Below are positions 1,368 to 51,070 of a stretch of 64,000 nucleotides of DNA, in pieces; the stretch's first letter is position 1, and each line of letters starts with the position of its first letter. Source of the DNA: an uncultured Candidatus Saccharibacteria bacterium (GTDB lineage: Bacteria; Patescibacteriota; Minisyncoccia; Phycocordibacterales; PALSA-1337); assembly GCA_964358005.1 (NCBI GenBank), contig CAYHNH010000003.1, forward strand, positions 16,334 to 80,333, read 5' to 3'. A program made the translations under genes and the position numbers. The notes under the pieces were generated by a model. It was not told where the DNA came from. It saw nothing but the letters and a program-made list of their open reading frames with translations, and ran no database searches.

Positions 1368-1369
1368 AT

Positions 1370-1852: not shown

Positions 1853-1855
1853 ATA

Positions 1856-4155: not shown

Positions 4156-4256
4156 GCTCTTGTATGGCTCTAAACTGATGCCATTCCTGCATTTCCTTGA
4201 TTAATTGATTCCATTCAGCTCTAATTAGGGTCACATAATTTTAGCAACAAATAAAT

Positions 4257-22495: not shown

Positions 22496-22608
22496 GCAGG
22501 GGAAAGCAAGTGGCATGAAGGGACATTGCGAGCGCGACTGGCGCGAGCACTAGGAATTTCGCAGCAGCGAAATATCCGTGTCCCTGGATGACACTTGCTT
22601 CCCCTTGC
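22496..22608. repeat. long-range imperfect inverted repeat (15/17 bp arms) forming an approximately 110-nt hairpin in the gyrA 3' intergenic region
   Basis: gcaggggaaagcaagtg (22496-22512) against cacttgcttccccttgc (22592-22608), with internal GC-rich palindromic segments (gcgcgactggcgcgagc). Confidence 0.4.
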
Positions 22609-22667
22609 TTGCTTTGTCCACACAGACAAGCCTGCCAATAGATGATCCATGCTAAAATTACGGGACC

Positions 22668-23186
22668 ATGTTCTCCGACCCTGGAGCAAATATCGCTAAA
22701 TTAGGCGTCGCTGACGGCATGAAAGTTGCCGACCTCGGTGCCGGGTCGGGCTTCTATTCTATAGAGTCAGCCAAGCGCGTAGGCGCTAGTGGCCGCATCT
22801 ACGCCATAGATGTCCAGAAGAACCTCCTGGAGAGGCTGCGTTCGGTGGCTCAAGCCCAAAGCCTCAATAACGTCGAGGTCATATGGGCCAACGCCGAGAA
22901 GATAGGCGGCACCAAGCTCAAGGATGCCTTAGTGGACAGAGCCATAGTCTCCAACATCCTCTTTCAGGTCGCCAAAATGGATGATTTTGCTCTGGAGGTC
23001 AAGCGGATCACGAAGTCCGGAGGCAAGCTCCTTATCATCGAATGGAATGAGACTACGCCGCTCGCCCCCAAGACCCAGGTGCCCCAGATAAAGGTCCAGA
23101 CGTTGTTCGAGAAGAGCGGCTTCAAGCTGGAGGAGACCTTCCCGGCGGGTGCTAGTCACTATGGCATGATATTTACGCGCATATGA
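22668..23186 (+). CDS. class I SAM-dependent methyltransferase
   Basis: VADLGAGSGFYS motif I, IYAIDV motif II; 172 aa. Confidence 0.6.
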   Translation: MFSDPGANIAKLGVADGMKVADLGAGSGFYSIESAKRVGASGRIYAIDVQKNLLERLRSVAQAQSLNNVEVIWANAEKIGGTKLKDALVDRAIVSNILFQVAKMDDFALEVKRITKSGGKLLIIEWNETTPLAPKTQVPQIKVQTLFEKSGFKLEETFPAGASHYGMIFTRI

Positions 23187-24484
23187 AAACCACTAAATTC
23201 CAGGTAATAACGCTCATAGTCTTCATCGTCTTCATCATCGCAGGCGTAACCATGTTCGCCACATATAAAGGCAGCCAATCAGAGCAGTCACTGCCACCAG
23301 TCACCATGTGGGGCACTTTTCCCAAGGATCAGTTCGATCAGTATGTTGTAAAAGTGAACAACGCTTTGCCCCAGCAATTCAACATCAGGTATGAGCAGGT
23401 GAGCGCACAGTCATTCTTGAACCGTTTCGTATCGGCGCTAGCTAAGGGCGCCGGTCCAGATGCCATACTCGTCGAGGCTGACATAATCCTGCCACTGCAG
23501 GACAAGCTCACGGCTATCCCATATGACCTCTACCCGCAGAGGGCCTTCATAGACCAGTTCATAGACGAGGCGCAGGTCTATCTCGGCAACGATGGTCTCA
23601 TCGGCATACCGTTCTCTGTAGATCCTATGGTCATGTATTGGAATAAAGACTCCTTCAACGCGGCCGGCATACCTCTGCCGCCGAAGTACTGGGATGAGCT
23701 CCGGGTCGTGAATAAAAAGCTCACGACGAAGGACGACAATGGCACTGTAACGCGGAGCGGCGCGGCTATGGGCGATTTTAGCAATGTCACAAATGCTCGC
23801 GAGCTCCTAGGCAGTCTCATACTGCAGTCGGGCAATGCGGTGACTGGGCCGAGCGAGCGTGGGGGATTGAAGAGCCTACTAAAGTCTACCGGAGAACGCA
23901 GTCCCGTGGCGGCTGTCACTTTCTTTACGCAATTTGTGGATCCCGGCAATGAGAATTATTCCTGGAACCATTCATGGCCAGACTCTAGGACGGCCTTCGT
24001 CTCGGGTAAGCTGGCCACATACTTCGGCATGGCCTCCGAGCTTTTTGCCCTGCGGAACAAGAATCCGAACCTGAATTTTGACGTGTCTCCCATACCGCAA
24101 TACAGGACCGGGGGAGTCGCGGCCACCTATGGCAAGATATATGGCTTCTCGATAGTGAAGCAATCGCAGGTGTCGAATGCCGCCTATCAGATGATATATA
24201 CCCTGACCGCCCCTCAATTCCTGTATGAGATATCCAATGGGATGTATCTGCCATCCGTAAGCCGGGCCATCATATCAGCCGGGTCGAAAGACCCATATGT
24301 CTCTAGGTTCAATGAAGCGGCTCTGATATCTAGGACCTGGAGGGACGCCGATTCGAGCGTCTCGTCGAGAATATTCGGGTCAATGGTGCAGACTATAACG
24401 ACAGGCCGCAAGTCTGTCGCGGAGGCACTAGATGAAGCATCGGAGGAATATGACGCGGCCCTCCTACAGGCAATCGGCGAATAA
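23183..24484 (+). CDS. extracellular solute-binding protein (ABC-transporter type), N-terminally membrane anchored
   Basis: N-terminal TM helix then about 400-aa periplasmic-binding-protein-like domain (WNKDSFNAAGIPLPPKYWDEL; sugar/oligopeptide SBP-like); overlaps upstream MT by 4 nt. Confidence 0.55.
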   Translation: MKTTKFQVITLIVFIVFIIAGVTMFATYKGSQSEQSLPPVTMWGTFPKDQFDQYVVKVNNALPQQFNIRYEQVSAQSFLNRFVSALAKGAGPDAILVEADIILPLQDKLTAIPYDLYPQRAFIDQFIDEAQVYLGNDGLIGIPFSVDPMVMYWNKDSFNAAGIPLPPKYWDELRVVNKKLTTKDDNGTVTRSGAAMGDFSNVTNARELLGSLILQSGNAVTGPSERGGLKSLLKSTGERSPVAAVTFFTQFVDPGNENYSWNHSWPDSRTAFVSGKLATYFGMASELFALRNKNPNLNFDVSPIPQYRTGGVAATYGKIYGFSIVKQSQVSNAAYQMIYTLTAPQFLYEISNGMYLPSVSRAIISAGSKDPYVSRFNEAALISRTWRDADSSVSSRIFGSMVQTITTGRKSVAEALDEASEEYDAALLQAIGE

Positions 24485-24487
24485 CAT

Positions 24488-25030
24488 ATGAAGGAAATAT
24501 CAAAAAAAGGCGTGATACTGGCGATACTAGGTGTGAGCTTTTTCAGCTTCGCTGGCATAGCAAGCGCGGTCAATCCCGCTGATGTGCCTCCGGTCAATCT
24601 CACCAAGACGCCTGACGCTGGCGGGCCATTTGGCGCTTTCAAGATACTGCAGTGCGATGGGCCGGCTAAATTGAACGATGTCTCAACGCACAGGGTCAAG
24701 AATACCGATGGCAATTGGCAGGTTGAAACTGTGAACGGAGTTCCGTGGACGCCAGATCCGAAATTCGTAGCCTGCGATTTCCGCGGCTTGATGATCCAGA
24801 TCCAGTTCCTCATCAATGCGGCAGTGGTCATCGGCGTCCTGGCGGCGCTCATCGGCTTTGCCTACGCCGGCTTCCTTTATATCACCGGCACCCAGGCCAA
24901 CCTCAAGAAGGCCCACACTATATTCCCGAAGATATTCTGGGGCTTTGTGATCATGCTCATGGCCTGGTTCATCGTTTATCAGATATTAGCTTGGCTAACG
25001 CCTGCGGCGTCGGCGTACTTGCCGCAATAA
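24488..25030 (+). CDS. paralog A of secreted two-TM-hairpin (VirB2/TrbC-pilin-like topology) family; about 85-aa Cys-containing ectodomain
   Basis: Signal peptide MKEISKKGVILAILGVSFFSFAGIASA; C-terminal TM1 (LINAAVVIGVLAALIGFAYAGFLYI), basic loop (KKAHTIFPK), TM2 (IFWGFVIMLMAWFIVYQILAWL). Confidence 0.5.
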   Translation: MKEISKKGVILAILGVSFFSFAGIASAVNPADVPPVNLTKTPDAGGPFGAFKILQCDGPAKLNDVSTHRVKNTDGNWQVETVNGVPWTPDPKFVACDFRGLMIQIQFLINAAVVIGVLAALIGFAYAGFLYITGTQANLKKAHTIFPKIFWGFVIMLMAWFIVYQILAWLTPAASAYLPQ

Positions 25031-25034
25031 CAAC

Positions 25035-25892
25035 ATGCATCCATTTAGAACAAAGGTCATCGTGGCACTGTCGCTCTCTCTGGCGTGTCTCTTTGCGGTT
25101 CTGCCGATATCTACAGCCAGCGCCCAGAGCTTTACGACGAATATCTCGGAGGTCACAGAGACCGGCTTCGACGTGAATTGGACGTTCGTGACTGGTGCAC
25201 AAAGGTACATGGTTTTTTGGAAAGCTAGATCCGAGGCGAGCTTCAGGCAGTCTAGCCCGATCTTAGCTTCGGCGGCGGCTACTCGCTATGCGCTCAGAAA
25301 CCTAACCCCAAGCACTCAATACGAGGTCTTTGTGGGAGTATCGATGGATGGCGCTTCATATGATGGGCAGACTGCGGTAAGCGCTCGCACACTGGGAGGG
25401 ACGGTTCCACCAACCCCTACGCCTGCTCCATCTCCCACCCCTGCGCCAACCCCTGCACCTACTCCAGCCCCCACACCGACGCCTGTCCCAGTACCAACAC
25501 TTGCACCAACACTTGCGCCGACACGTGCCCCAGGCACCGGTACTGGCAGTACTGGCACGCAAAACATGTTCTATATCCAGAACCCCCTCAATCCACAATT
25601 CAACAGCGTCGGGGGTCTAGTCAGCGGCTTTCTGGAGATATTCTCTTATCTGGTGATACTTTTCGCGGTTCTGATGCTCATCTGGGTAGGTCTGCAGTTC
25701 GTCCTGGCCCAGGGAAATGCCGAAAGGATGAAGGAGCTCAAGAAATGGCTACTGTGGATAGTGGTCGGCATAGCTCTCGTAATAGGTGCTAGAATTGTCG
25801 TTGCAGTAGTGATTAGTACCCTGGATGCGACTGGCGTAGTAAATCAAGGAGTCATCAGGGGCGCTCGTAATGCATTAGATGGCAGACCATAA
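25035..25892 (+). CDS. paralog B: signal peptide, fibronectin type III domain, Pro/Thr linker, C-terminal two-TM hairpin
   Basis: FN3 pattern (FDVNWTFVTGAQRYMVFWK...LTPSTQYEVFVGV); PTPTPAPSPTPAPTPAPTPAPTPTPVPVPT linker; TM1-AQGNAERMKELKK-TM2 hairpin. Confidence 0.55.
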   Translation: MHPFRTKVIVALSLSLACLFAVLPISTASAQSFTTNISEVTETGFDVNWTFVTGAQRYMVFWKARSEASFRQSSPILASAAATRYALRNLTPSTQYEVFVGVSMDGASYDGQTAVSARTLGGTVPPTPTPAPSPTPAPTPAPTPAPTPTPVPVPTLAPTLAPTRAPGTGTGSTGTQNMFYIQNPLNPQFNSVGGLVSGFLEIFSYLVILFAVLMLIWVGLQFVLAQGNAERMKELKKWLLWIVVGIALVIGARIVVAVVISTLDATGVVNQGVIRGARNALDGRP

Positions 25893-25896
25893 TAAG

Positions 25897-26271
25897 ATGA
25901 TAAAAAACATGTTGAATTCCAGAATCAAGATGGCGACTATGACAGGAGCGACGATACTGTTTCCATTGACCGCCTTCGCCGCTGACAAAAAGCTCTCCGA
26001 CATAATAAATACAATAGTTTCCTATCTCGGCGATATTCTCTTCCTGCTCATGGCCCTGGCTGTGGTCATATTCGTCTGGTATGTGATCAAGTATTTCATC
26101 ATGCCGAATGAGAGCCGCAAGGAGGCCGGTCAATATGTCATGTACAGCCTGATCGGATTCTTCGTTATACTCTCTATGTGGGGGATAGTTAGTGTGATCT
26201 CGAATACACTGGACATAGGAGGAGCTGGCCCCCAGACTTGGGATAATTTTAGGAACATATTTCCCCGTTAA
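25897..26271 (+). CDS. paralog C of two-TM-hairpin family
   Basis: Signal-like MATMTGATILFPLTAFAADKK; TM1 ILFLLMALAVVIFVWYVIKYFI, loop MPNESRKEAGQY, TM2 VMYSLIGFFVILSMWGIVSVI. Start ambiguous between ATG 25879, 25897 and 25909. Confidence 0.5.
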   Translation: MIKNMLNSRIKMATMTGATILFPLTAFAADKKLSDIINTIVSYLGDILFLLMALAVVIFVWYVIKYFIMPNESRKEAGQYVMYSLIGFFVILSMWGIVSVISNTLDIGGAGPQTWDNFRNIFPR

Positions 26272-26286
26272 TATATAAGAAAATCC

Positions 26287-26739
26287 ATGAATAGCGCAGC
26301 AGTCACAAATGCCGGCACTCTGATAAGCAAGTTCGATTACCTTTTCCGTTCGGCTGTATGGCTCATGGTGTCCCTGGCGATCGTTTTCATCGTATGGCAC
26401 GCATTGCAGTTCATAAGGGAAGCGGGAGGCGACGAGAGGAAGAAGCACCAGAACGCTATATTGTGGGGCATCGTCGGTCTTGCGGTTATCCTCTCGATCT
26501 GGGGACTTGTCGCCATATTGAGCAATACATTTAATGTCGGCAATGTCGAAGGCCAGAATGAAGCGGCGAGGAATATAAACAAGCTCATCATACCCAGGAG
26601 CTCGTTCCAGAGTGGTGGTGGATCTAATCCTACGCCTGCCCCCGGACCCGGCACTGGCACCGGATCCAACCCACCTGGACCTGGTACGGGCACTGGATCT
26701 AACCCCCCTGGCCCGGGTACTGGCACCGGATCGAATTGA
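26287..26739 (+). CDS. paralog D of two-TM-hairpin family, C-terminal GPGTGTGSNPP x3 repeat tail
   Basis: TM1 AVWLMVSLAIVFIVWHALQFI, loop REAGGDERKKHQNA, TM2 ILWGIVGLAVILSIWGLVAIL; no obvious signal peptide. Confidence 0.5.
   Translation: MNSAAVTNAGTLISKFDYLFRSAVWLMVSLAIVFIVWHALQFIREAGGDERKKHQNAILWGIVGLAVILSIWGLVAILSNTFNVGNVEGQNEAARNINKLIIPRSSFQSGGGSNPTPAPGPGTGTGSNPPGPGTGTGSNPPGPGTGTGSN
26641..26736 (+). repeat. three tandem 33-nt units encoding the identical peptide GPGTGTGSNPP with synonymous nucleotide differences
   Basis: Units at 26641-26673, 26674-26706 and 26707-26736; the peptide is conserved while third codon positions vary. Confidence 0.6.
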
Positions 26740-26840
26740 TAGTAATCCACAGCTAGGCTTAAATAAAACCGTAATACTGCTATAATTGCAGACAGCTAGA
26801 AATTGTCGTTTAGCATCCTTATTAAAATCATTAAATTAGT

Positions 26841-27215
26841 ATGAAAAAGCTTATAACAACACTCGCTTTCACCCTCGCGCCAGCCATAGCTTTCGCCCAG
26901 GTAAACGCCCCTGTCAGGGATTTCAATAGCCTGACCCAGAAGACCATAGGTATCGGCAACACCATCATCGGCGTGCTCATAGCTATCGCGGTCATATTCA
27001 TCGTCTATAACGTTCTGATGTTCATCGTCAAGGCCGGAACGGACGACAGGAAGACATATCAGAAGGCCATCCTTTGGGGCATCGTCGGTCTTGCTGTTAT
27101 CCTCTCGATCTGGGGTCTCGTCGCCATCCTTACGAACACCTTCGGCACAGCCGGCAACCCTGTAGGTCCTGCAACTCTCTACCCAGTCAATCCAGTACCG
27201 GTACCAGCTCAATAA
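26841..27215 (+). CDS. paralog E of two-TM-hairpin family
   Basis: Signal peptide MKKLITTLAFTLAPAIAFAQ; TM1-KAGTDDRKTYQKA-ILWGIVGLAVILSIWGLVAIL; shares a near-identical 60-nt stretch with paralog D (26461-26520 against 27067-27126). Confidence 0.55.
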   Translation: MKKLITTLAFTLAPAIAFAQVNAPVRDFNSLTQKTIGIGNTIIGVLIAIAVIFIVYNVLMFIVKAGTDDRKTYQKAILWGIVGLAVILSIWGLVAILTNTFGTAGNPVGPATLYPVNPVPVPAQ

Positions 27216-27218
27216 ATA

Positions 27219-27527
27219 ATGCGAGGATTGCTCCCATCACTGGTATCTGAAGCGCATGCCCAAGCCGCGACAAGCAACGTCGCGGCGTTTGGCAATGTCC
27301 TGAATCCGATAATCACTAATATCGTAAACCCCATCGTCAAGCTGGCCTTCGCGGTCGCAGTGGTGGTGTTCGTGTATGGGGTGATACAAATGATCTTGAA
27401 TAAGACAGACGCTGAATCTCACAAGAAAGCCAGGTGGAGCATGCTGGGAGGGCTCATCGGTATGGTCATAATGGTTTGCGCCTGGGGAATAGTGTATCTG
27501 GTGGCAAACACGGTAAAGGGTTTTTAG
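27219..27527 (+). CDS. paralog F of two-TM-hairpin family
   Basis: Signal-like MRGLLPSLVSEAHAQA; TM1 LAFAVAVVVFVYGVIQMIL, loop NKTDAESHKKARW, TM2 SMLGGLIGMVIMVCAWGIVYLV. Confidence 0.5.
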   Translation: MRGLLPSLVSEAHAQAATSNVAAFGNVLNPIITNIVNPIVKLAFAVAVVVFVYGVIQMILNKTDAESHKKARWSMLGGLIGMVIMVCAWGIVYLVANTVKGF

Positions 27528-27614
27528 GGTAAAAAAAGAGGCCGCGCAGTCTGTTTGAGTTTTGAATTCAAACGACGGCGCGGCCACTCGTGTGGTAGAG
27601 AATGTGCTGAACTC

Positions 27615-28250
27615 TCAATCCTCGGGGTTCGACAGGGCGAGCTGCCACCAGTTCCTGGGGAGTGCCCCCATGAAGACGATATAACCGAGGCGTGAACGGG
27701 TGATTGAGTCACCTGCCACGATCCGGAAACCCGCCTTATGGGTATGGGCGACCTTGAACTTCTGTTCGTTGTCGGGGTTATAACTGACCGTCCGCTTCGG
27801 GAAGGTGTGGACGGCCTGGCCATCCACACAATACTGGAAGGGGACATTGTCCACGATGCCGACCTCGATCGAGTAACCTGCCGGCACGTCGATCTCCTCG
27901 ATCGTGCGACCTGTGCTGACCGTGAAGCTACCATACTTCAGGATCGGCGGCCGAGATGGCATGGCCGGAGCAGCATACGCCTGCGGCGTTTGCTGCTGAT
28001 AGGCCATGGCCGGCGGGGGTTGGAACTGTCCGCCCCCCTGCAGTGCCCGCTGGGCCTGCTGCGCCGCGGCCGCTTGCCGCTTCGCCGCCGCCTCTTCGCG
28101 CCGGGCCGCCTTGGCTTCCTCGACCTCCGCGTAGTTCACGCGAAAGCCATTGATGAGGACTCCCAGGAGGACCAGTGCCACGGCCCCGATCAGGAGCCAT
28201 TTCAACGTTTTCGGGTTCTGAGTTTTGTTGTTTTTTTTGTCTGCGCTCAT
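27615..28250 (-). CDS. hypothetical N-terminally membrane-anchored protein with Ala/Gln-rich linker
   Basis: TM helix WLLIGAVALVLLGVLI, then AKAARREEAAAKRQAAAAQQAQRA low-complexity stretch and a 110-aa C-terminal domain; G+C-rich. Its ATG overlaps the upstream gene stop (TAATG). Confidence 0.45.
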   Translation of the reverse strand: MSADKKNNKTQNPKTLKWLLIGAVALVLLGVLINGFRVNYAEVEEAKAARREEAAAKRQAAAAQQAQRALQGGGQFQPPPAMAYQQQTPQAYAAPAMPSRPPILKYGSFTVSTGRTIEEIDVPAGYSIEVGIVDNVPFQYCVDGQAVHTFPKRTVSYNPDNEQKFKVAHTHKAGFRIVAGDSITRSRLGYIVFMGALPRNWWQLALSNPED

Positions 28251-29326
28251 TAGTTGCCTTTCTTGTTGTTGGATTTTTTGCCCAGCGTCGATGTGTCGGT
28301 CAACGCTATGTTACTGATGCCGCCCCTGCCACCCTCGATGCGGGTGACGCGCTGATCGCGCATGAGGCGGGCCTTCTGGAACTTTTCCCACATCTGTTCC
28401 CAGGTGCCGATCCTGGAGGCCTTCATATACATCTCGACGATCTCCAGATTCGTCTTGGTCTCGGCCACTTCGGCCAGACGGTCGAACACTTCGCGAGCTT
28501 GCGCTCTCATAGCCTCCAGGATGTCATCCGGCAGATCGAATTTGGCTTGTATCTGCCTGACTTCGATGCCAAACGTCTCACCCTCGAAGATGTGCTCAAG
28601 TTCAGCCTCCATCGGGCCTGCCAGGAATTGCTTCGGGTCGGTGACTACTTGATGACTGCTCAGTCCTACCGCCCGCGCCTTGGTGTCCTGGACCACGATG
28701 CCGTCGAGCAGGGGCTTGATGCCATCCCACTTTCCGGCCTGGACGAAGTCGACCGCATCGCTGAGGTCAACCTCGAACCGTCCATCGATCTCTCCATCCA
28801 AGGGAACCTGATCCACCCCGCAGATTATCTGCATGTGAAATTCGAGATTCTTGTCCGTGATGTCGATCGGGTCGGTATCGATGTGGAATGGCCAGATTGG
28901 TAAGACCAAGGTTCTTCCTCCTACTGTGATACCGCCGTTCTCTTGATCAATGTAGGCATCCCAGCATTTGAGGAGGCCGGCAGTCCGTGGATCGGATGGG
29001 TGAACCTTTTCACCTTTCCACCAGATCAGGATACCTAGCACCAATGGCGGAAGCCCGAAGGGATTTCCGAGAAGGGACAGGGTGATTCCTGACCCGACGA
29101 GTAATATGCAGACCATGAGGATGGAGAGCGTAATGCCGTTCGCAAATGGCTTCAGGCTCGGCGCAGACGTCTCGTGACGCTTTTTGCGCTTCGCCTTCTG
29201 ACCATCGTCTGTCACTTGCGGCTTCTCGGCTTTCGCCAGGGAAGCACGCGAGTTGATCATGAGCATGATTATGGCAACGACAGCCATTATCAGTCCGATC
29301 CCTATCAGTATGTTACCGATGTTCAT
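28250..29326 (-). CDS. SPFH/band-7 (stomatin/flotillin-like) domain membrane protein
   Basis: Two N-terminal TM helices then SPFH-like core (GITVGGRTLVLPIWPF...EAMRAQAREVFDRLAEVAETKTNLEIVEMYMKA). Start uncertain between ATG 29326 and upstream TTG 29389. Confidence 0.45.
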   Translation of the reverse strand: MNIGNILIGIGLIMAVVAIIMLMINSRASLAKAEKPQVTDDGQKAKRKKRHETSAPSLKPFANGITLSILMVCILLVGSGITLSLLGNPFGLPPLVLGILIWWKGEKVHPSDPRTAGLLKCWDAYIDQENGGITVGGRTLVLPIWPFHIDTDPIDITDKNLEFHMQIICGVDQVPLDGEIDGRFEVDLSDAVDFVQAGKWDGIKPLLDGIVVQDTKARAVGLSSHQVVTDPKQFLAGPMEAELEHIFEGETFGIEVRQIQAKFDLPDDILEAMRAQAREVFDRLAEVAETKTNLEIVEMYMKASRIGTWEQMWEKFQKARLMRDQRVTRIEGGRGGISNIALTDTSTLGKKSNNKKGN

Positions 29327-29604
29327 TTGGACGCTAGTTTCGAGCCGTCCCGGAATGGGAGGCTCATTGGTTGAGGATTGAGTTTTCAACGTGCTTTCGT
29401 ACGTTGGTATTGACTGGTGTTAATAGTAGCACTTTTGGGTATGTTTGTCAAGTAATAAAATGGCTCAAAATATGGGTTATTGGGCGTAGGCAGCTCAAAT
29501 TTGGGACAAAAAAGCGCCCCCGATGCAAGCATCAGGGGCGTTGTGTTCTTCGCTATGGATCCCTGCGGACCCTGGAGGAAGAACGTCACGAGTAGAGACC
29601 TTCG

Positions 29605-31347
29605 TCAGTAGCGGAAATGACCGCTGTAGACGACGGGATCGACTCGGGTGTGGCCTCGGAAGGCCGGGGGGAGCGGCAGCGGGTTCACGACCGGCACCAC
29701 ATACTGCATCCGTTCAACCGGTGCGCAGTAGGCGGGATTGTAGCTTTGGCCGTAATCGGCGTAGGCCACCTGCCCGTAGTTGGTCTGCTGCTGGGGCGCT
29801 CGGACGAGCGTCCCATTCTGCTCCGGCGGCGAGCGGTAAAGCTCTTCGCCGGGGTAGGGGTGCGGAACGATGGCACTTACAGGCTTCGCCCCCAGCTGCG
29901 GCCCTTGCGGAGCGGCCGACTCGGGTTGAACCCGCGGTCCTTCATCCGGCATCTCGCGACGCGAGCGACCGGACTGGACTGGGGCGGGCTGGAAGCCCTG
30001 ACCCTGGTGCGGCTGACCCTGGACGACCTGGGGCGCCGCGGGCTGCACGTAGATCACCTGCGGGGCAGGCGCTGCCGCTGCCGGTTGAGCCGGCTGCGAC
30101 GGAACGGGCGCCCAGGGTTGGTGGATCGCATGCATGCTGTAGGATTGCCAGGCCATGAAGGCCAGGCAGCCCAGGATCAGCACGATGACGAACACCAGCG
30201 CCCAGAGCCACGGGGACCCGGACTTCGACGACTTGGTCGTGCGCTCCGAGGTGGTCGTTGCCGACCTCCGCGAACCGCCGCGACGCTTGTCATCGTCGTC
30301 ATCCGAACTGCCACCACCGGAGCCACCACCACCGAACTTCGCGAGAAGCTCGGAGTGGCGCTTGTTCGCATCGGAATCCGAGCGAGCAAAACCGTCGTTG
30401 ACGGTGCCGGCGAGCTGCGTGACCTGGTTCTTCAGCGCTTCCAGCTCCGTGCGGAGCTTGGTGGCCTCATCCTTGGTCGCCGCGTTGCCGATCTTCGTGC
30501 GAAGCTCGGCCATCTCGCGCTCGATCGCGATGATACGGGCGTCGTTGTTGCCAGCAGGCTGGTTGCCGCCGCCGGTGTTGTCACCAGGCTTCGGCTTCTC
30601 AACGTGTTGCAACGCCAGGACGTGCTCGGGGAGGAGTTCGAACACACAGGTGCCCGGCTCGCTCTTGTTGCCGTCCTTGTCGAACGACACGACCGAGACC
30701 ACGAGCTCGTCGCCCGCGGGGTTCAGCTTCGGCTTGTTGCCGAGCAGGACCTCGAGATGACCGTGCGTCACCCCGTCCTTGTCGATCGCCTTGTCGGCCG
30801 CGTTGGCCGTCATGGGCCCGAAGCTGTCACCGGCCTTGTTCTTGGCCGAAATGACGTGCTTCACGACGGACGGTTCTTCCGTCGTGATCCGGAGGAAGAG
30901 CCCACCACGGGTCTCTTCCTTCCGCTTGTTCGTGCGCTTGACGTCCGGCTTCTTCACGGCTTTCTTGCCGGCGCTCGCGCCACTGCCGCCACCACTTGTG
31001 CCGGACGCATTGGCCATGACTTCCGTCACGGTCATCGCGTCGAGGGTGGTTTGGCCAGTGGCCATTTCGGCGGCGGGCGTGCTGTTGGCGTCCGTCACCT
31101 TGATCTCGACATCGATCGGCTCTCCGACCACGATGTCCGTGATCGGGTTCTTGGTTTGGAGTTGGAGTTTGGTGATGTCGAACTGCAGCTTGTCCGACAC
31201 CATGTCACTGCGAGCGATCGTTCCAAGCCAGAGCAGCGTGCCCTTGGCGTTGGTGACCGTAGCGGTGACGTGGGTGGTATCTGCAGAGAGGCTTTCCAAG
31301 TAGACTTGGGCACCCTCGATTTTGGTAACATTGGGCTTCGTTGGCAT
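29605..31347 (-). CDS. large bitopic membrane protein: about 390-aa cytoplasmic region with coiled coil, single TM, about 180-aa Pro/Gln-rich C-terminal tail
   Basis: Coiled-coil segment IAIEREMAELRTKIGNAATKDEATKLRTELEALKNQVTQLAG; TM WLWALVFVIVLILGCLAFMAW; tail PQVIYVQPAAPQVVQGQPHQGQGFQPAPVQ. Most G+C-rich gene in the window; the antisense ORF is judged a shadow. Confidence 0.5.
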   Translation of the reverse strand: MPTKPNVTKIEGAQVYLESLSADTTHVTATVTNAKGTLLWLGTIARSDMVSDKLQFDITKLQLQTKNPITDIVVGEPIDVEIKVTDANSTPAAEMATGQTTLDAMTVTEVMANASGTSGGGSGASAGKKAVKKPDVKRTNKRKEETRGGLFLRITTEEPSVVKHVISAKNKAGDSFGPMTANAADKAIDKDGVTHGHLEVLLGNKPKLNPAGDELVVSVVSFDKDGNKSEPGTCVFELLPEHVLALQHVEKPKPGDNTGGGNQPAGNNDARIIAIEREMAELRTKIGNAATKDEATKLRTELEALKNQVTQLAGTVNDGFARSDSDANKRHSELLAKFGGGGSGGGSSDDDDDKRRGGSRRSATTTSERTTKSSKSGSPWLWALVFVIVLILGCLAFMAWQSYSMHAIHQPWAPVPSQPAQPAAAAPAPQVIYVQPAAPQVVQGQPHQGQGFQPAPVQSGRSRREMPDEGPRVQPESAAPQGPQLGAKPVSAIVPHPYPGEELYRSPPEQNGTLVRAPQQQTNYGQVAYADYGQSYNPAYCAPVERMQYVVPVVNPLPLPPAFRGHTRVDPVVYSGHFRY

Positions 31348-31613
31348 GGTTCTGACTTCCGGTAATGACCGCGCTTTTTGAAGGCGCAGGTCGGGTTTAG
31401 TTGTTCATTTCAACCCACCTGCGCTTGCGCGAAAGGGGCCGAACTGATGCTTTCACAGACAAAAGTATTCGGCTGTCAACAGGATGCTTGATCCTGGGGC
31501 TACACAGCCCTGAACTATGAATTCTTGTACAATGATACTACATATAGAGGTAAAAGTCAAGGGCAGATGAAATATAACTATAATATCGAATAAAGGCTCA
31601 AGTTTGCTGTTTT

Positions 31614-31665
31614 CTAGAAAAAAAGAAGGCCCGCAGTCATAAATGACGGCTGGGCCCTCCTCGTA
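31614..31665 (-). terminator. candidate rho-independent terminator (minus strand) after the 31697-33181 gene
   Basis: On the minus strand GGGCCCAGCCGTCA-TTTA-TGACTGCGGGCC imperfect hairpin followed by TTCTTTTTTTC. Confidence 0.35.
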
Positions 31666-31696
31666 GAGGATTGAAACTAACTCTTTTTGATAAACA

Positions 31697-33181
31697 TTAT
31701 CTGAGGTTACGATCGCACCAGTTCCTGGCAGGAACCGGATGGAACGCTGACTGGAGCAGGCCGAGCGCGCCTGTCGTCGGATCCCTTCCGACCAGTTCTT
31801 CCCAGGGGATGTAGGTGGGGTGGCGGTCGATCGTGTTACTGCCATTCAGGAACATTTCACCTTTCTTGAAGTAGTACCACAGACCGTCGTCACCATCGCC
31901 TTCCTGACCGCACTGCTCGAACGAGGGAAGCAGTTTCCGTCCGAGCTTCTTCAGCTCGAATATACGGATCATGCGCACGGGATACTCGAGGATGCCGGCA
32001 TAGCGATAGGTGGCCTTCGAACCAGTCACGCACAGCTTGAGCTCCTCGTCAGAGAAGATCTGCACGTTACCGGTCTTCTTGGCCCGGACCACCGTGACGC
32101 CTGGCATCTTCTTGTCGTCGGGGATGTGCTTCTGAAGCAGATTCCGACAATGCCTGGCCGCCTTGTGCGCATTCCGGCTGTCCGTCGTCGTGGCGCTCAG
32201 CAGGATGATCCGCTCCTCGCCATCGAGAAGCGCCCGAACGAAGATGGGCGCCTCCTTGCTCTGCCTGTCGACCTCGGACCAGAAGTCCGCTTGGTCGATA
32301 TGCATCGCCACGAAGGCATACTCGAGCAGGTCTGCGATGTCCTGTTCCGTGGTCGCCACATCCTTGGCGCTGGTCCGCGCCATCGCTTCGACTCCGAAGG
32401 CCAGTTCCGTGACGTAAGTTCGGTCTGCGCCTTCTTTGTCGGGAACGAATGTCGCTTTGCGTTGCATGCTGCCATGCATGCGCTGGAACAGGCTGCTGCG
32501 GATGCGCGGTTCCATCGGGCCGTTGGCCTCCTCCCAATCGCCGAGCCACTTGCGGAAGTAGTCGACGAGGTTCTTCTCTCCGGGGGGACGCTCCAGCTTG
32601 ACCGAAGCCATGATCTGGCTCTCGCGAGTGATGATCGCAATGATCAGCGGCTCAATGAAGCTAAAGATCCTCTTGGCGGCGTCGACATTTCGACGATTGT
32701 CCACCTTGATGAGCTCAGCTAGCATCGTCGACCGACAACCACTCTCGGTGTCGCACCGCAGGACTTCTGCCAGAAGCCGCCGCAGCGCCGCCACGTCCTC
32801 CTTCTTAAGGTAGTTCGCGACGAGCCGAGTCGAACACCATCCGGGCATGCGGTCGCCACCTTCCTTCAGGTGCTCGTTGAAGCGACACTTGTCGCCAGTT
32901 CCGAACGGCAGGATGCCGTCCGCGTCGAACTGTTCCTCTGTGCCGGTCATGTCGCCGAAGACGATGTTCCGGTCCCGCAAGGCTTTGCGGATACCGGGGA
33001 ACACGTCTTCGCCGAACAGTGCCGCCACTATCGCTCCAGCGACTTCGTCAAGGTGTGGCGATGGATGCATCGCCAGTTTCTTGACTGGGATCACTGGTAC
33101 CGGGTATGCGAACCCGGTGAACGTCGGGTTTATGAACCCTGCTGACGCTATCATGGGAGTCCTTTGGTTGATGAGGCCCAT
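31697..33181 (-). CDS. hypothetical protein (494 aa), G+C-rich
   Basis: Long ORF with protein-like composition; possible metal-binding His-rich N-terminal motif (MHPSPHLDEV); no family recognised. The plus-strand overlapping ORFs are shadows. Confidence 0.45.
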   Translation of the reverse strand: MGLINQRTPMIASAGFINPTFTGFAYPVPVIPVKKLAMHPSPHLDEVAGAIVAALFGEDVFPGIRKALRDRNIVFGDMTGTEEQFDADGILPFGTGDKCRFNEHLKEGGDRMPGWCSTRLVANYLKKEDVAALRRLLAEVLRCDTESGCRSTMLAELIKVDNRRNVDAAKRIFSFIEPLIIAIITRESQIMASVKLERPPGEKNLVDYFRKWLGDWEEANGPMEPRIRSSLFQRMHGSMQRKATFVPDKEGADRTYVTELAFGVEAMARTSAKDVATTEQDIADLLEYAFVAMHIDQADFWSEVDRQSKEAPIFVRALLDGEERIILLSATTTDSRNAHKAARHCRNLLQKHIPDDKKMPGVTVVRAKKTGNVQIFSDEELKLCVTGSKATYRYAGILEYPVRMIRIFELKKLGRKLLPSFEQCGQEGDGDDGLWYYFKKGEMFLNGSNTIDRHPTYIPWEELVGRDPTTGALGLLQSAFHPVPARNWCDRNLR

Positions 33182-33311
33182 GCCTCGTTTTTGGTTTTGG
33201 GAAATAGCGCTGTTCTCTCAGATATGTTGTAAAGAACGGAGAAACCAGCTGAGGCGCATTATATCACATAATTAAGCTATAAGTCAATATACTCTGTAAA
33301 TGTCAATTTTG

Positions 33312-33393
33312 TGGGCACGGGGAGACTCGAACTCCCAAGTCTTGCGACACATGGTCCTAAGCCATGCGCGTATACCAATTCCGCCACGTGCCC
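33312..33393 (-). tRNA. tRNA-Leu (anticodon TAG), long variable arm
   Basis: Acceptor GGGCACG/CGTGCCC, anticodon stem-loop CATGG-CTTAGGA-CCATG, long variable arm, T-loop TTCGAGT; 82 nt. Confidence 0.85.
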
Positions 33394-33428
33394 ATGCCTC
33401 GATAATAATACACGAAACCTTTGCCTTT

Positions 33429-33502
33429 GTGCGCCCAGTAGGGATCGAACCTACGACCTTGTCCTTAAGAGGGACCTGCTCTACCAGCTGAGCTATGGGC
33501 GC
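33429..33502 (-). tRNA. tRNA-Lys (anticodon CTT)
   Basis: Acceptor GCGCCCA/TGGGCGC, D-arm GCTC-AGCTGGTA-GAGC, anticodon loop CTCTTAA (one 27-43 mismatch), T-loop TTCGATC; 74 nt. Confidence 0.8.
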
Positions 33503-33670
33503 GAGTGAGGACGAAAGCGAGCGTTCCAACGCTCAGCTTTAGTCCGAGCGACGCGCCTATATGTCCTCATATGGGCGCGAGTGAGAAAAAATATACCAGA
33601 AAATGAGCTTTTGGGCAATTGACGAGGCGTACCCTTGAAATCCCACCGCCCATATGTCATACTGCATTCC

Positions 33671-33958: not shown

Positions 33959-34858
33959 ATGGCAAATCGACATCTCTCACGTTCAGTCGTACTGCAATCC
34001 CTCTTTGAATGGGATTTCTGTGGAGGGCACTCCGATCTGGAGCCGCTTATCGCCCGCAATATCAAGGAATTCGCACCAGGACTCACCGATCAGTCATTTG
34101 TAGATGATCTCATAAAAGGCGTCATCGCCAAGAAGAAAGAGCTCGATACTATCATCGAGAAGGCCGCTCCTGATTGGCCGATAGACAAGATATCGCCGGT
34201 AGACAGGAATGTCCTGCGCTTGGGGCTGTATGAGCTCCTGTTCGCTGACCGCGGTGAGGTGCCAGCCAAGGTCGCTATAAACGAGGCCATCGAGCTGGCC
34301 AAGACATTCGGGGGAGATACGAGCGGAAGATTCGTGAACGGCGTGCTCGGCGCGGTCTATAAGGAACTAGGCGAGCCGGGCAAAGAGGCGGCGCCGATGA
34401 AGAAAAAGAAGATACCAGATGTGCCGTTCGAGAGCATGCTCATCCAGCATCTCGGCGGGGCGGTGATATACGCGAAAAGCGGCAAAGACATATATCTCGC
34501 GTTCGTCCATGACATATTTGGGCATTGGACATTATCTAAGGGCAAGATAGCGGAGGGCATAGATCCGACCGAGGGCACAGTAGCGAAGGTCATGGAGGAA
34601 GTCGGTCTCGAGGTCAGGATAAAAGCCGACCTTGGCTCCAATGAATACGTGGCCAACGACCCGGAGCTCGGCAAGATCAGGAAGCAGGTGCACTATTATC
34701 TGGCCGAGTCGCCGTTCGTCGATCTCAAGCTGGCCAAGAAGCCCGGTCTAGATGACGCCAAATGGTTCAAGCTCTCCGACATCCTTGAGCTCAATTTTTA
34801 TAATGACATCCTGCCTATCGTCACTAAGGCGGTGACTATGCTTAGCGAACAAAAATGA
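33959..34858 (+). CDS. nusB: NusB transcription antitermination factor fused to a C-terminal Nudix-like domain
   Basis: Residues 1-138 match NusB (RHLSRSVVLQSLFEWDF...VDRNVLRLGLYELLF...AINEAIELAKTFGGD..GRFVNGVLG); the C-terminal about 160 aa carry a Nudix-fold signature (WTLSKGKIAEGIDPTEGTVAKVMEEVGLEV) with a degenerate Nudix box. Confidence 0.7.
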   Translation: MANRHLSRSVVLQSLFEWDFCGGHSDLEPLIARNIKEFAPGLTDQSFVDDLIKGVIAKKKELDTIIEKAAPDWPIDKISPVDRNVLRLGLYELLFADRGEVPAKVAINEAIELAKTFGGDTSGRFVNGVLGAVYKELGEPGKEAAPMKKKKIPDVPFESMLIQHLGGAVIYAKSGKDIYLAFVHDIFGHWTLSKGKIAEGIDPTEGTVAKVMEEVGLEVRIKADLGSNEYVANDPELGKIRKQVHYYLAESPFVDLKLAKKPGLDDAKWFKLSDILELNFYNDILPIVTKAVTMLSEQK

Positions 34859-46759: not shown

Positions 46760-47365
46760 ATGCCAACTGAATTAACAGCAATTTTTGGAGTTCTATCTGG
46801 AATCGCAGTCCTAATCGGTGGCATCCCATATCTCCGAGACATTCACCTAAATAGAGCACAGCCTCATATATTGAGCTGGTTGGGCTGGACCTTTATCACT
46901 GCTCTCGGTGCCAGCGCGATGCAGGCTGAAGGCAGCACTTGGGTGGTCGGAATACTGTGGGCGAATGCGCTCAATTCCTTCCTGATAGCGGCGTACTCGG
47001 CTATTAAGAAAACTGGTGTCTGGTCGACTGGTATCTATGATTATATTTTTTTCGGGCTAGGCGTCATGGGACTAGTCCTGTGGCAGGTTTTGGATATGCC
47101 TGTCCTGGCGATTATCTGTGCCATTGCAGCTGACTTGTCGTTTGGCATTCCGACGATCATAAAATCATACAAGAATCCGGGATCAGAAACATTCTTTGTG
47201 TGGCTAATGTCCTCTGTTTCTGGTTTTCTTAGCTTGCTTGCTATCCAGCAATTCGTTTTCCATGAGGTGGCATATCCACTATATTTGTTTATTTATGACA
47301 CTATAGTCATGCTACTAGTATTGAAAATAATTCACAGACCAGGCCGTGGTCTCGTTCAGAAATAA
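46760..47365 (+). CDS. polytopic membrane protein (6 predicted helices), low-G+C
   Basis: 201 aa, highly hydrophobic (IFGVLSGIAVLIGGIPYL; VVGILWANALNSFLIAAYSAI; ...); no family recognised. Confidence 0.45.
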   Translation: MPTELTAIFGVLSGIAVLIGGIPYLRDIHLNRAQPHILSWLGWTFITALGASAMQAEGSTWVVGILWANALNSFLIAAYSAIKKTGVWSTGIYDYIFFGLGVMGLVLWQVLDMPVLAIICAIAADLSFGIPTIIKSYKNPGSETFFVWLMSSVSGFLSLLAIQQFVFHEVAYPLYLFIYDTIVMLLVLKIIHRPGRGLVQK

Positions 47366-47369
47366 TTTC

Positions 47370-48683
47370 ATGCCTGACATCGACCTATACAACAAATCTC
47401 CCGAATCATACGATGATCTCCAACACATGCGCCCGGACTATGTCGGTGCGCAAAAGGCGTTTATAGATCTGGCGGTACAACATTTGAACGGCAAACAGAA
47501 TATCTCTGTCGCTGATTTCTGCTGCGGCACAGGTCAAGACACCAAAACGCTCGCCGGACATGTGAAGATTGATAAGGCCACGCTCATAGACATAAACAAG
47601 GACTTTTTGAGAATTGCTAAGGAGAAGGACATTGGAGTTCACAATATCGTGACGATTTGCTCTGACATTCTGGAGGCTGACGTGTCAGCGAATAATGATC
47701 TAGTCATCTCGATGTTCGCCTATCACCATGTTCCAAATAATAGGAAGGCTGATTATCTAAAGAAGGCGAAGGAGGCTCTTAAGCCTGGCGGCCTGCTTCT
47801 TCTAGGTGAGATATTCATGCAGAGTAAGGCGGATACGTTGAAGTACTATGAGGATTTGATCGCTTCGATTCCCGGATCGAAGGATAATCCTGCTTTGGTC
47901 AGTTTTCTAAGGCAGACTGCGCAAAGCGATGATTTTGAATTTAAAGTCTCCAAGGAGTATGCCTACAATCAACTAAAAGAGGCAGGTTTTTCTCTGGTTG
48001 AGTCGAAAAAGATATGGCCCCTCGATGGCAGTTTGTCGGCTGATGATGGGACATTTGTGGAGGTTTGGAAATCAAATATTACGAAATTGTTTCTAACATC
48101 TGCAGGTTTTACTAACTCTGAAACTACAGATATTTTGATGGAAGAGATCCCAAAGCAGGCCGAATTGTGTAAGGTTTTGATGATTAGCTGCACCCAGGAT
48201 GAGACTGAGGAATCCTATGTGAATGAGTCCAAGAATGAGCTTCGATCACTCGGTTTCAAGGACATAAAGGTTCTTGATCTGCACAAACCGATGAAGCCTG
48301 ATCCTGCCGACATTGTGTATGTCTGTGGCGGCAATACTTTTGCGATCCTGCAGAAAATGAAAGAAACGGGTGTCGATAAATTTATAATTGATTCAGTGAA
48401 TAAGGGTGCCTTGTACATAGGCGTTTCCGCGGGAAGCATTATGGCTGGCAAGACCATCGAGATTGCCGGATGGGGCTCGACCGGAGACAAGAATGAGGTC
48501 GGCCTCAAGGATCTCACTGGCTTCGGTTTTACTGACGTAGCAGTTTTTCCTCATTATCAGACTTCACAAAAAGATGAGGTCGCGGAATTCAAGAAGAGGG
48601 CCACTTATCCGGTTATTGAAATTACCGACAATCAGATGGTGTTTGTGAGGGATAATAAAGCAAAAAAGATAGGGAGATTTTAA
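47370..48683 (+). CDS. fusion protein: class I SAM-dependent methyltransferase (N-terminal) plus peptidase S51/dipeptidase-E-like domain (C-terminal)
   Basis: N-terminal VADFCCGTGQDTKTLAGH (motif I) ...LLLGEIFMQS; C-terminal IVYVCGGNTFAILQKMKETG...IGVSAGSIMAG (GGNTF plus nucleophile-elbow serine typical of the S51 family). Start at ATG 47370 (track start is GTG 47346). Confidence 0.5.
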   Translation: MPDIDLYNKSPESYDDLQHMRPDYVGAQKAFIDLAVQHLNGKQNISVADFCCGTGQDTKTLAGHVKIDKATLIDINKDFLRIAKEKDIGVHNIVTICSDILEADVSANNDLVISMFAYHHVPNNRKADYLKKAKEALKPGGLLLLGEIFMQSKADTLKYYEDLIASIPGSKDNPALVSFLRQTAQSDDFEFKVSKEYAYNQLKEAGFSLVESKKIWPLDGSLSADDGTFVEVWKSNITKLFLTSAGFTNSETTDILMEEIPKQAELCKVLMISCTQDETEESYVNESKNELRSLGFKDIKVLDLHKPMKPDPADIVYVCGGNTFAILQKMKETGVDKFIIDSVNKGALYIGVSAGSIMAGKTIEIAGWGSTGDKNEVGLKDLTGFGFTDVAVFPHYQTSQKDEVAEFKKRATYPVIEITDNQMVFVRDNKAKKIGRF

Positions 48684-49263: not shown

Positions 49264-49950
49264 ATGGAAAATATAAAAGAAGACGGAACAATTAATAAAG
49301 AAAGGAAAGTGCCTTGTTCAGAATGTGCATCCAAAACTTATCACAAGGTCTTAAAATCGATTAATTATCTTGAATCTGGGGACTGGGGAATTACATGGGG
49401 TAATTATGAAATAATTATATGTCAGGGATGTAGATATATTTCCTTTAGAAAAGTTTTAGGGACTGATGATGTAATTGGACAAGATGAGGAGGGAAATTTC
49501 ATATACGAGGAGGAAGAGGAGTTGTTCCCTCCAAGATTGAGTGGAAGGAAAGAGCTTGAGGATAATAGGTTTTTGCCCTTGGATGTCGGAAGAGTATATC
49601 GTGAGACCTATCGTGCTATTAATGGCGAACAACCGATTCTCGCCGGAATGGGAATCAGGGCGTTGGTTGAAGCTGTATGTGTTGAAGAAAAAATAAAGGG
49701 TAGAAACTTGGAGAAAAGGATTGATAACCTAGTTGAAGCTGATTTACTTACCAAGAAAGGCGCTGAAATTCTTCAGCAAATTAGGCTTTATGGTAATGAT
49801 GCGGCTCACGAAGCAAAAGCGGCAAAGATTGAGGATCTGGGGGTCCTAATGGATATAGCCGAAAACCTTCTACACAATACATACCTACTTAAGATAGGGG
49901 TAGCAAAGCTAGAAAAAGTAAAAAGTAAGCCTAAAGAGGCTAAGAAATAG
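49264..49950 (+). CDS. DUF4145-domain protein with N-terminal Cys4 zinc-ribbon-like region
   Basis: CSEC...CQGC N-terminal pairs; C-terminal DUF4145 signature (KRIDNLVEADLLTKKGAEILQQIRLYGNDAAHEAKAAKIEDLGVLMDIAENLL). Confidence 0.5.
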   Translation: MENIKEDGTINKERKVPCSECASKTYHKVLKSINYLESGDWGITWGNYEIIICQGCRYISFRKVLGTDDVIGQDEEGNFIYEEEEELFPPRLSGRKELEDNRFLPLDVGRVYRETYRAINGEQPILAGMGIRALVEAVCVEEKIKGRNLEKRIDNLVEADLLTKKGAEILQQIRLYGNDAAHEAKAAKIEDLGVLMDIAENLLHNTYLLKIGVAKLEKVKSKPKEAKK

Positions 49951-49999
49951 AACCCTGGTTTGCCTGGTATTGACTTTAAAATTAGGCTACAATTAGTCT

Positions 50000-50602: not shown

Positions 50603-50608
50603 TATGTT

Positions 50609-51058: not shown

Positions 51059-51070
51059 TGTTTTAAGGCC

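Follow-up and report, generated by a model that had tools for sequence, protein, structure and literature searches.

Gene content of the block

The window analyzed here is a stretch of 64,000 nucleotides from an uncultured bacterial genome (assembly GCA_964358005.1, contig CAYHNH010000003.1), and our subject is a G+C-rich block at positions 27540-33400, which lies between an array of VirB2-like pilin genes and a pair of tRNA genes. The same contig is present in a Hainich groundwater metagenome (0.1-µm fraction). An earlier note on this DNA had described four minus-strand genes in the block, two of them coupled through a TAATG overlap, and two adjoining tRNA genes. All of this was borne out: the genes are open reading frames (ORFs) of 211, 379, 580 and 494 amino acids (aa), the stop codon of the gene for the SPFH protein and the start codon of the gene for its membrane-anchored 211-aa neighbour overlap in TAATG, and ARAGORN places the tRNA-Leu/tRNA-Lys pair at 33311-33502, with the 3' end of tRNA-Leu(tag), at 33311, facing the block. 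The features of the region are the following.

25035-27527, plus strand: left conserved flank, an array of five genes for VirB2-like pilins (T4SS_pilin), each of which exceeds the gathering score of Pfam PF18895
25035-25892 (with an fn3 domain), 25879-26271, 26287-26739, 26841-27215 and 27219-27527, plus strand: the individual pilin genes
27615-28250, minus strand: small bitopic protein of 211 aa, its gene coupled in translation to that of the SPFH protein
28250-29389, minus strand: divergent protein of the SPFH/Band-7 type, 379 aa when started at TTG (345 or 358 aa in other gene calls)
29423-29451, minus strand: promoter-like site upstream of the SPFH-211 pair (10/12 consensus matches, extended TG), predicted from the consensus only
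29515-29540, minus strand: hairpin resembling an intrinsic terminator after the 580-aa gene (11-bp stem with 8 G-C pairs, then a T-run)
29605-31347, minus strand: long bitopic protein, 580 aa
31532-31560, minus strand: promoter-like site upstream of the 580-aa gene (10/12 consensus matches)
31697-33181, minus strand: predicted DHH/DHHA1-fold phosphoesterase-like protein, 494 aa
33258-33287, minus strand: promoter-like site upstream of the 494-aa gene (11/12 consensus matches, extended TG)
30330-33310, no strand: tRNA-proximal segment replaced relative to the closest relative (L003, see below), comprising the 494-aa gene and that half of the 580-aa gene which encodes the N-terminus
33311-33393, tRNA-Leu(tag), and 33429-33502, tRNA-Lys(ctt), minus strand: right conserved flank (ARAGORN), followed by rpmF and nusB

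Judging from the predicted signals, the block may be transcribed as three units: the SPFH-211 pair and, each on its own, the 580-aa gene and the 494-aa gene. As for the flanks, the first gene of the array (25035-25892) encodes an unusually decorated VirB2-like pilin, whose C-terminal T4SS_pilin domain is preceded by a signal peptide, by an fn3 domain and by a linker rich in Pro, Thr and Ala. On the other side, an exact 16-nt direct repeat, TATGGGCGCGAGTGAG, was found at 33494-33509 and 33570-33585; the 5' end of tRNA-Lys falls within its first copy, whereas the second is situated 76 nt further, between the tRNA pair and rpmF.

A conserved slot in related Paceibacteria

Relatives were collected by scanning species-representative genomes with the adjacent NusB-Nudix protein, and the best 80 matches were used, their loci being numbered (L003, L013 etc.). 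The matches were metagenome-assembled genomes (MAGs) of Paceibacterota/'Candidatus Taylorbacteria', with 65-83% identity. The query is itself a fusion of NusB to a Nudix-like C-terminal domain (33959-34858, 299 aa), and the fusion is kept at this level of identity across all 80.

In 17 genome loci, the pilin array was followed by a cassette and then by tRNA-Leu/tRNA-Lys. The order common to these loci is gyrA, methyltransferase, solute-binding protein, p180, p285, pilins, slot, tRNA-Leu/tRNA-Lys, rpmF, nusB, rnc, smc and clpB. In three further genomes the SPFH gene of the slot was present and the array fell outside the locus (20 genomes in all), and four further metagenome contigs showed the same arrangement. 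The tRNA pair bounded the slot in all ten array-bearing relatives that were scanned for tRNAs. Slots of relatives are 3.2-8.8 kb long, their genes are on the same strand as in the window, and they have a recurrent architecture: a small single-pass protein (118-211 aa), an SPFH-like protein (310-395 aa) and a long Pro-rich single-pass protein (237-889 aa). In several slots the 494-aa protein also had a homolog, encoded in one or the other orientation; most slot cassettes were without such a DHH-like gene, and the full four-gene order recurred in L003, L084 and L086. The slot proteins are extremely divergent among genomes, often past sequence recognition, and the SPFH-type homologs belong to two SPFH subfamilies, combined with at least three types of small protein. 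When metagenomes were scanned for the slot SPFH protein, all matches were same-clade loci of the same synteny. The slot and its gene architecture are conserved in related Paceibacteria.

The block had originally been read as an inserted island, with the expectation that related genomes would lack it. Instead, an SPFH-type cassette sits at the same position in 20 related genomes and 4 metagenome contigs, and among the syntenic loci 17 filled slots stand against a single empty one (L017, the only empty slot among the relatives scanned, where the pilin array ends ~100 bp from tRNA-Leu). Orthologs in the same synteny throughout the lineage are exactly what the earlier note had named as speaking against its own reading. 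Because the same gene architecture occupies the slots of nearly all syntenic relatives, we regard the cassette as an ancestral resident of this site and not as the product of repeated insertion.

These data also bear on the possibility that the block is a degenerate integrative element, i.e. a tRNA-targeting island or prophage remnant of unknown donor which has lost its integrase. Its position on the 3' side of tRNA-Leu, the empty site of L017, its atypical composition (see below) and weak PHROG matches to Zot-like and spanin families (E ~3e-4) would all fit such an origin. However, no integrase, recombinase or phage structural domain was detected in the four proteins (Pfam, PHROGs, NCBIfam), and no other integrase-like ORF occurs within 27.5-33.6 kb, as the earlier note had already stated for integrases. 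Neither was there any att-like repeat of at least 14 nt linking 33311-33393 to the 27.5-kb boundary. In blastn searches against 50,697 phage and 72,556 plasmid records, tRNA-Leu was the only match. The PHROG matches fall on transmembrane (TM) and low-complexity stretches; the same was true of the other minor matches obtained with Pfam, NCBIfam, PHROGs and PADLOC (Zot-like, spanin, GspM, DUF6779, CCDC90), which were all dismissed as low-complexity or TM artefacts. We therefore give this scenario very little weight.

Proteins encoded by the block

The product of 28250-29389 is a divergent, clade-restricted SPFH/Band-7 protein, as judged from its sequence. It consists of an N-terminal TM segment with a K/R-rich loop (present in the window and in L003 only), a hydrophobic hairpin, the SPFH domain and a helical C-terminus. 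The hydrophobic stretch 84-122, with a GNPFGLPP turn ahead of the SPFH domain, is kept in relatives according to sequence inspection only. The match of the window protein to Pfam Band_7 is below the gathering score (E = 0.0022). Nevertheless, the assignment made in the earlier note is upheld by the family: 5 of the 19 slot homologs matched Band_7 (best 3.8e-9), the L003 ortholog (74% identical) has a precomputed Band_7 match, the family profile matches prohibitin 8rrh (E = 5e-5), and hhalign connects the two SPFH subfamilies of the slot (P = 93.9%).

Its coupled partner of 211 aa has a K-rich N-terminus and one TM segment; a long helix rich in Ala and Gln and then a Pro/Gln linker lead to a beta-rich C-terminal domain of ~100 aa, which is predicted to be extracytoplasmic. 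An identity as an NfeD partner was considered and rejected, as there was no PF01957 match and a low-confidence model was without an OB fold.

The 580-aa protein was confirmed to be bitopic and to carry a Pro/Gln-rich tail. It has a single hydrophobic segment at ~376-405, with a K/R-rich stretch before it, and a tail of 175 aa composed of 18% Pro, 13% Gln and 12% Ala. In the N-terminal ~375 aa, Gly/Ser-rich linkers accompany two beta-rich segments, and a heptad-like helical stretch lies at ~265-330. This region is predicted to be cytoplasmic, with the Pro/Gln/Ala-rich tail outside the cell. The minus-strand reading of the gene is the real one because its third-position G+C content (GC3) is higher than that of the antisense ORF (0.81 vs 0.65 at 29605-31347) and because its C-terminal half is under purifying selection (see below). 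No significant Pfam match was obtained. The long proteins of relatives share the architecture of the 580-aa protein without detectable sequence homology, and hidden Markov models of the small slot proteins did not match the C-terminal domains of the long proteins.

The 494-aa protein had no sequence match in Pfam (DHH PF01368 and DHHA1 included), NCBIfam, PHROGs or the PDB; the only PDB sequence matches of its family were designed helical repeats, judged spurious. A profile search of 1.84 billion cluster representatives yielded 619 relatives at E<=1e-3. The AF2 model built from 60 family members (predicted local distance difference test, pLDDT, 89.2; predicted template modelling score, pTM, 0.87) was matched by Foldseek to RecJ-Cdc45 with probability 0.96, and 3 of the 60 members showed weak matches to Pfam DHH (best 0.0046). 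A two-domain DHH + DHHA1 fold with a helical insertion of ~190 aa was found. A polar cluster is conserved in the family, consisting of H39 (60/60), H43, D45, E46, (D/N)102-E103-H104, D144 (60/60) and N446-G447-S448; it is entirely kept in the window protein, where position 102 is N, as opposed to D in most family members. The fold is like that of the DHH/DHHA1 phosphoesterases PggH, NrnA, RecJ and GdpP. However, the canonical motifs of the superfamily (DxD, D, DHH, D, GGGH) are not kept, their DHH/GGGH being replaced by HxxxHxDE, (D/N)EH, D144 and NGSxT. Given the missing motifs and the long insertion, we filed the protein as DHH-fold and phosphoesterase-like, outside any curated DHH family; on the strength of the model, it is a predicted DHH/DHHA1-fold phosphoesterase-like protein. 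A relationship to MYG1/UPF0160, suggested by an apparent likeness of the HxxxHxDE and FDEH motifs, was rejected, as none of 60 members matched UPF0160 at E<=1.

More distant members of the 494-aa family occur in other contexts without an SPFH gene. One of them (L087 8001-9377, 458 aa) lies beside a ParB-methyltransferase fusion and type I restriction-modification genes; from this unrelated context it follows that the DHH-like family is not tied to the SPFH cassette. This neighbourhood, the nuclease-superfamily fold and the replacement of cassettes in a hypervariable locus next to a tRNA gene would be compatible with a conflict system, that is, an anti-phage or competition module composed of a DHH-like nuclease and membrane proteins, whose variability would stem from an arms race. 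Yet none of the four proteins matched any of 5,027 PADLOC models, no toxin, immunity or sensor domain was recognised by Pfam, PHROGs or NCBIfam, and most slot cassettes are without the DHH-like gene, whereas their conserved core consists of SPFH and bitopic proteins typical of membrane organisation. We consider a conflict system quite improbable.

Base composition and codon usage

All comparisons of G+C content, codon adaptation index (CAI) and tetranucleotides use the 64-kb window as their compositional baseline. The statement of the earlier note that the block is visibly richer in G+C than its flanks proved correct. Its G+C content of 0.584 is the top value among all 5.86-kb windows in the 64 kb, those over the native part having a mean of 0.533 (standard deviation 0.007, maximum 0.548), and the two 1-kb bins with the highest G+C content, 30001-31000 (0.654) and 32001-33000 (0.607), are both located in the block. 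For the four block genes, a G+C content of 0.570 would be expected from their amino acids and native synonymous-codon usage, while 0.604 was observed and core genes have ~0.545. Roughly 40% of the excess can therefore be attributed to a composition rich in Pro, Ala, Gly and Gln, and the remainder consists of GC-richer third positions (GC3 0.69-0.81 in the four genes vs 0.69 in the core).

Codon usage gave a different picture. The CAI of the four genes, calculated against core genes of the window, is 0.66-0.73, compared with a core range of 0.56-0.77. For the 580-aa gene, whose codon use had been called unlike that of ftsZ or gyrA, the CAI is 0.726, close to the 0.735 and 0.774 of these two genes; its GC3 of 0.81 is the maximum of the window, yet only modestly above that of core genes (up to 0.75). 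The codon adaptation of the four block genes is native. Of the compositional checks proposed with the original reading, sliding G+C and tetranucleotides thus came out atypical within the 64 kb, but codon adaptation did not.

Comparison with relatives put the G+C excess into perspective. In each of the 18 genomes compared, also in those whose core G+C content is 39-42%, the long gene was richer in G+C than core genes. A high G+C content is therefore characteristic of this class of genes; the slot as a whole was richer than its flanks in 15 of 18. The G+C excess is a lineage-wide property of slot genes.

The earlier note had taken the composition of the block, its place beside two tRNA genes and the character of the Pro/Gln-rich long protein as hints of an acquisition from an actinobacterial host of a candidate phyla radiation (CPR) epibiont. 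The block is indeed the GC-richest part of the window, it abuts the 3' end of tRNA-Leu, its tetranucleotide signature is atypical, and the long protein is rich in Pro, Ala and Gln, like many actinobacterial envelope proteins. The protein searches, however, offered nothing to sustain this origin. Among 5.8 billion proteins, only 2, 2 and 5 matches were found for the 494-, 580- and 211-aa proteins, self included, so that the 580-aa protein has one non-self homolog, and no homolog of any of these three was found in Actinomycetota. The matches are environmental metagenome or MAG records. Most of them carry no taxonomy, and the lineage call was made from genomic context and a few source names; all that could be checked in this way belong to the same lineage as the window, being Taylorbacteria-like proteins encoded in the same pilin-array context. 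Furthermore, a GC3 of 0.69-0.81 together with a native CAI is unlike high-GC Actinomycetota, cassettes of the same architecture fill the slot in 20 genomes and 4 contigs, including genomes with a core G+C content of 39-42%, and a weak DUF6779 match (E = 0.06) is not significant. Finally, the organism is a groundwater 'Taylorbacteria'-like Paceibacterium for which no actinobacterial host is known. We find host-derived acquisition barely credible.

Evidence for an exchange of cassettes within the lineage

The closest relative among the best 80 matches is L003, whose flanking proteins are 92-98% identical to those of the window. In a blastn comparison, the two sequences were 86.6% identical over 22557-25030 and 81.7% over 26674-30330. 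No DNA similarity was detectable at 30330-33310, and the tRNA-Leu end was identical again. Synonymous (dS) and nonsynonymous (dN) divergence, estimated by the Nei-Gojobori method for this one close pair only, was distributed as follows.

MT172, SBP433, p180, pil124, the 211-aa gene and the C-terminal half of the 580-aa gene: dS 0.41-0.88, dN 0.03-0.08
pil102: dS 1.16, dN 0.13
SPFH gene: dS 0.98, dN 0.18
N-terminal half of the 580-aa gene: dS 1.1, dN 0.81
494-aa gene: dS 2.5 (saturated), dN 0.64

Within the 580-aa protein, residues 340-580 are conserved (dN 0.076) and residues 1-339 are replaced (dN 0.81). From the abrupt loss of similarity at ~30330 and the deeper dS inside, it appears that the tRNA-proximal 3 kb were replaced by a distant homologous allele; in other words, the alignments indicate an allelic replacement of 30330-33310 relative to L003. 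To this extent the original reading is partly supported, while a foreign insertion is contradicted by the lineage-wide slot.

The alternative to exchange would be purely vertical descent of fast-evolving genes, in which amino-acid bias accounts for the G+C excess, and relaxed or diversifying selection in place accounts for the divergence. The native CAI, the conserved synteny, the ~40% share of amino-acid composition in the G+C excess and a dN/dS below 1 in every segment compared with L003 agree with this. So does the fact that the SPFH subfamilies partly, although only partly, follow the weakly resolved NusB+RNase III tree. Against it, the dS of the 494-aa gene (2.5) and of the N-terminal half of the 580-aa gene (1.1) is above that of most flanks (0.41-0.88), pil102 (1.16) and SPFH (0.98) being intermediate, and the switch at ~30330 is abrupt. 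Moreover, the GC3 of slot genes departs from that of the core in both directions among relatives: it is higher in low-GC L013 (0.56 and 0.74 vs 0.34) and in the small gene of L031 (0.68 vs 0.31), but lower in high-GC L019 (0.63-0.71 vs 0.78). The pilin array adjacent to the slot is kept in relatives, and its GC3 follows the core GC3. On the NusB+RNase III tree, both the small-protein types and the DHH-like gene have a scattered distribution; the resolution of this tree is too weak to prove incongruence. On balance, we regard strictly vertical descent as unlikely. The most extreme decoupling of slot and core composition was observed at L013 5910-7880 and L031 2950-3447, where slot genes have a GC3 of 0.68-0.74 and core genes 0.31-0.34.

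A model of the cassette

Taken together, we consider it probable that the block represents, in this genome, a hypervariable cassette of cell-envelope genes that is specific to the clade and occupies a fixed slot in 'Taylorbacteria'-like Paceibacteria of groundwater and soil. According to the model that we propose, the SPFH protein would form a cytoplasm-facing oligomeric membrane scaffold, by analogy with SPFH systems, and would corral its translationally coupled 211-aa partner and the long bitopic protein. The variable beta-domain of the former and the Pro-rich tail of the latter might then extend into the envelope, next to the pilins that the array encodes. The DHH-like protein would be, by its fold, a metal-dependent hydrolase of nucleotides or oligonucleotides. 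Together with the cytoplasmic N-terminal domain of the long protein, it may constitute the most exchangeable sub-cassette; since the N-terminal part of the 580-aa gene and the 494-aa gene have been replaced together relative to L003, their travelling together suggests that the two may also act as a pair. The cassettes would be swapped among related Paceibacteria by homologous recombination in the conserved flanks.

A more far-reaching version of this model would see in the cassette and the VirB2-like pilus genes a single, so far undescribed module of the host or phage interface of CPR bacteria, in which an SPFH ring organises two hypervariable single-pass envelope proteins, the cytoplasmic domain of the long protein, itself exchangeable, regulates the new DHH-like family and co-varies with it, and swapping of cassettes sets partner or phage specificity. 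We put this forward as speculation and think it improbable that all of it will hold.

Several observations weigh against the envelope-cassette interpretation. As for composition, the tetranucleotide signature departs from the usual one across the whole of 24-33 kb, pilin array included (r = 0.49-0.69 vs 0.83-0.90 elsewhere), and three of the four block genes exceed their amino-acid-expected G+C content by 0.035-0.054, whereas the maximum among core genes is 0.027. The block may therefore have been imported from a relative of higher G+C content. The yardstick for these values is 64 kb of the genome, not whole-genome composition. As for distribution, the arrangement is not universal, since neither an array nor an SPFH gene was present upstream of nusB in some nine close relatives. 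The linkage of cassette and array was seen within one syntenic clade only and may thus reflect phylogenetic inertia instead of functional coupling. As for the proteins, the equivalence of the long proteins at the third position of the slot is assumed, because they share architecture but no demonstrable homology; membrane topologies were deduced from charge distribution alone; and the fold of the 211-aa protein, which resembles a jelly-roll or beta-sandwich and not an OB fold, comes from a model of low confidence. The functions given here for all four gene products are inferred.

The interpretation has several consequences. It removes the tempting but unsupported claim of gene transfer from host to epibiont, and it illustrates that G+C richness beside a tRNA gene can be an intrinsic, lineage-wide trait of a gene class. 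It identifies a locus of replacement-type variability in the streamlined genomes of Paceibacteria, beside a VirB2-like pilin array. Since one array of this type has been reported to be essential (see below) and the variable locus adjoins an array of the same kind, the locus becomes a candidate determinant of surface specificity in organisms that are not yet culturable. In addition, the predicted DHH/DHHA1 fold is assigned to a so far unannotated family of ~620 sequence clusters, which gives a directly testable biochemical hypothesis.

Other compositional outliers in the window

Elsewhere in the window, three blocks of low G+C content have clearly foreign codon usage (CAI 0.45-0.60). The strongest outlier of all is 49264-51652, with a G+C content of 0.33-0.39, GC3 of 0.28-0.35, CAI of 0.45-0.49 and a tetranucleotide r of 0.28. 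Its genes encode a DUF4145 protein, an antitoxin with a SocA/Panacea domain (50000-50602), after it a 149-aa partner without any match, and a 193-aa membrane protein. It probably represents a toxin-antitoxin or defence islet of recent acquisition. Another block, 371-4871, has genes with a G+C content of 0.40-0.45 and GC3 of 0.34-0.53, including those for a TylF-like O-methyltransferase (711-1367), a carbamoyltransferase (1856-3544; CAI 0.53, the sole gene scored) and a HAD hydrolase (3541-4155), and looks compositionally far more foreign than 27540-33400. The third, 46760-48683, has a G+C content of 0.44-0.45 and contains a fusion of an S-adenosylmethionine-dependent (SAM) methyltransferase and Peptidase_S51 at 47346-48683.

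Comparison with known systems

A literature search found no description of this SPFH cassette module, but parts of it can be related to known systems. VirB2-like pilin arrays are widespread in Patescibacteria, where 441 arrays of 2-11 genes each have been described (PMC12102498), and one such array is reported, as cited in PMC12102498, to be essential in Ca. Southlakia epibionticum. The left flank of the slot, a tandem array of five divergent T4SS_pilin genes, is of the same kind. PMC12102498 makes no mention of an adjacent SPFH cassette, and no virB4 was found among the genes examined in the window.

The SPFH-211 pair is reminiscent of SPFH/NfeD operons (stomatin-NfeD, QmcA-YbbJ, FloT/YuaG-YuaF), in that the gene of an SPFH protein is translationally coupled to that of a small partner, which is anchored in the membrane and has a beta-rich C-terminal domain. 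The Gly/Pro turn in the hydrophobic stretch ahead of the slot SPFH domain likewise resembles stomatin-type hairpins. Unlike in these operons, the slot partner has no NfeD match, a single TM segment and a C-terminal domain predicted to lie outside the cell, and the slot SPFH protein belongs to a very divergent, clade-restricted subfamily.

With tRNA-linked integrative islands, the block shares its position at a tRNA 3' end, its atypical composition and its absence from one relative. It differs from them in having neither an integrase nor an att duplication, and in that its site is filled by cassettes of related architecture in nearly all syntenic relatives.

The closest parallel is provided by replacement-type flexible genomic islands, a concept reportedly due to Rodriguez-Valera and colleagues, which embraces O-antigen or glycosylation islands and similar loci of variable envelope genes. 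The content of our slot is different, as it comprises an SPFH protein, two single-pass proteins and a DHH-like enzyme in place of glycosyltransferases, its host is an ultra-small CPR bacterium, and the functional equivalence of its cassettes is deduced from architecture only. In other respects the likeness is close: a fixed position between conserved flanks, an abrupt drop in similarity, atypical composition, mostly envelope-associated products and the lack of an integrase. Highly divergent cassettes of presumably equivalent architecture would be a further parallel. A replacement-type flexible island, kept by recombination in its flanks, is the best-fitting known concept for this locus.

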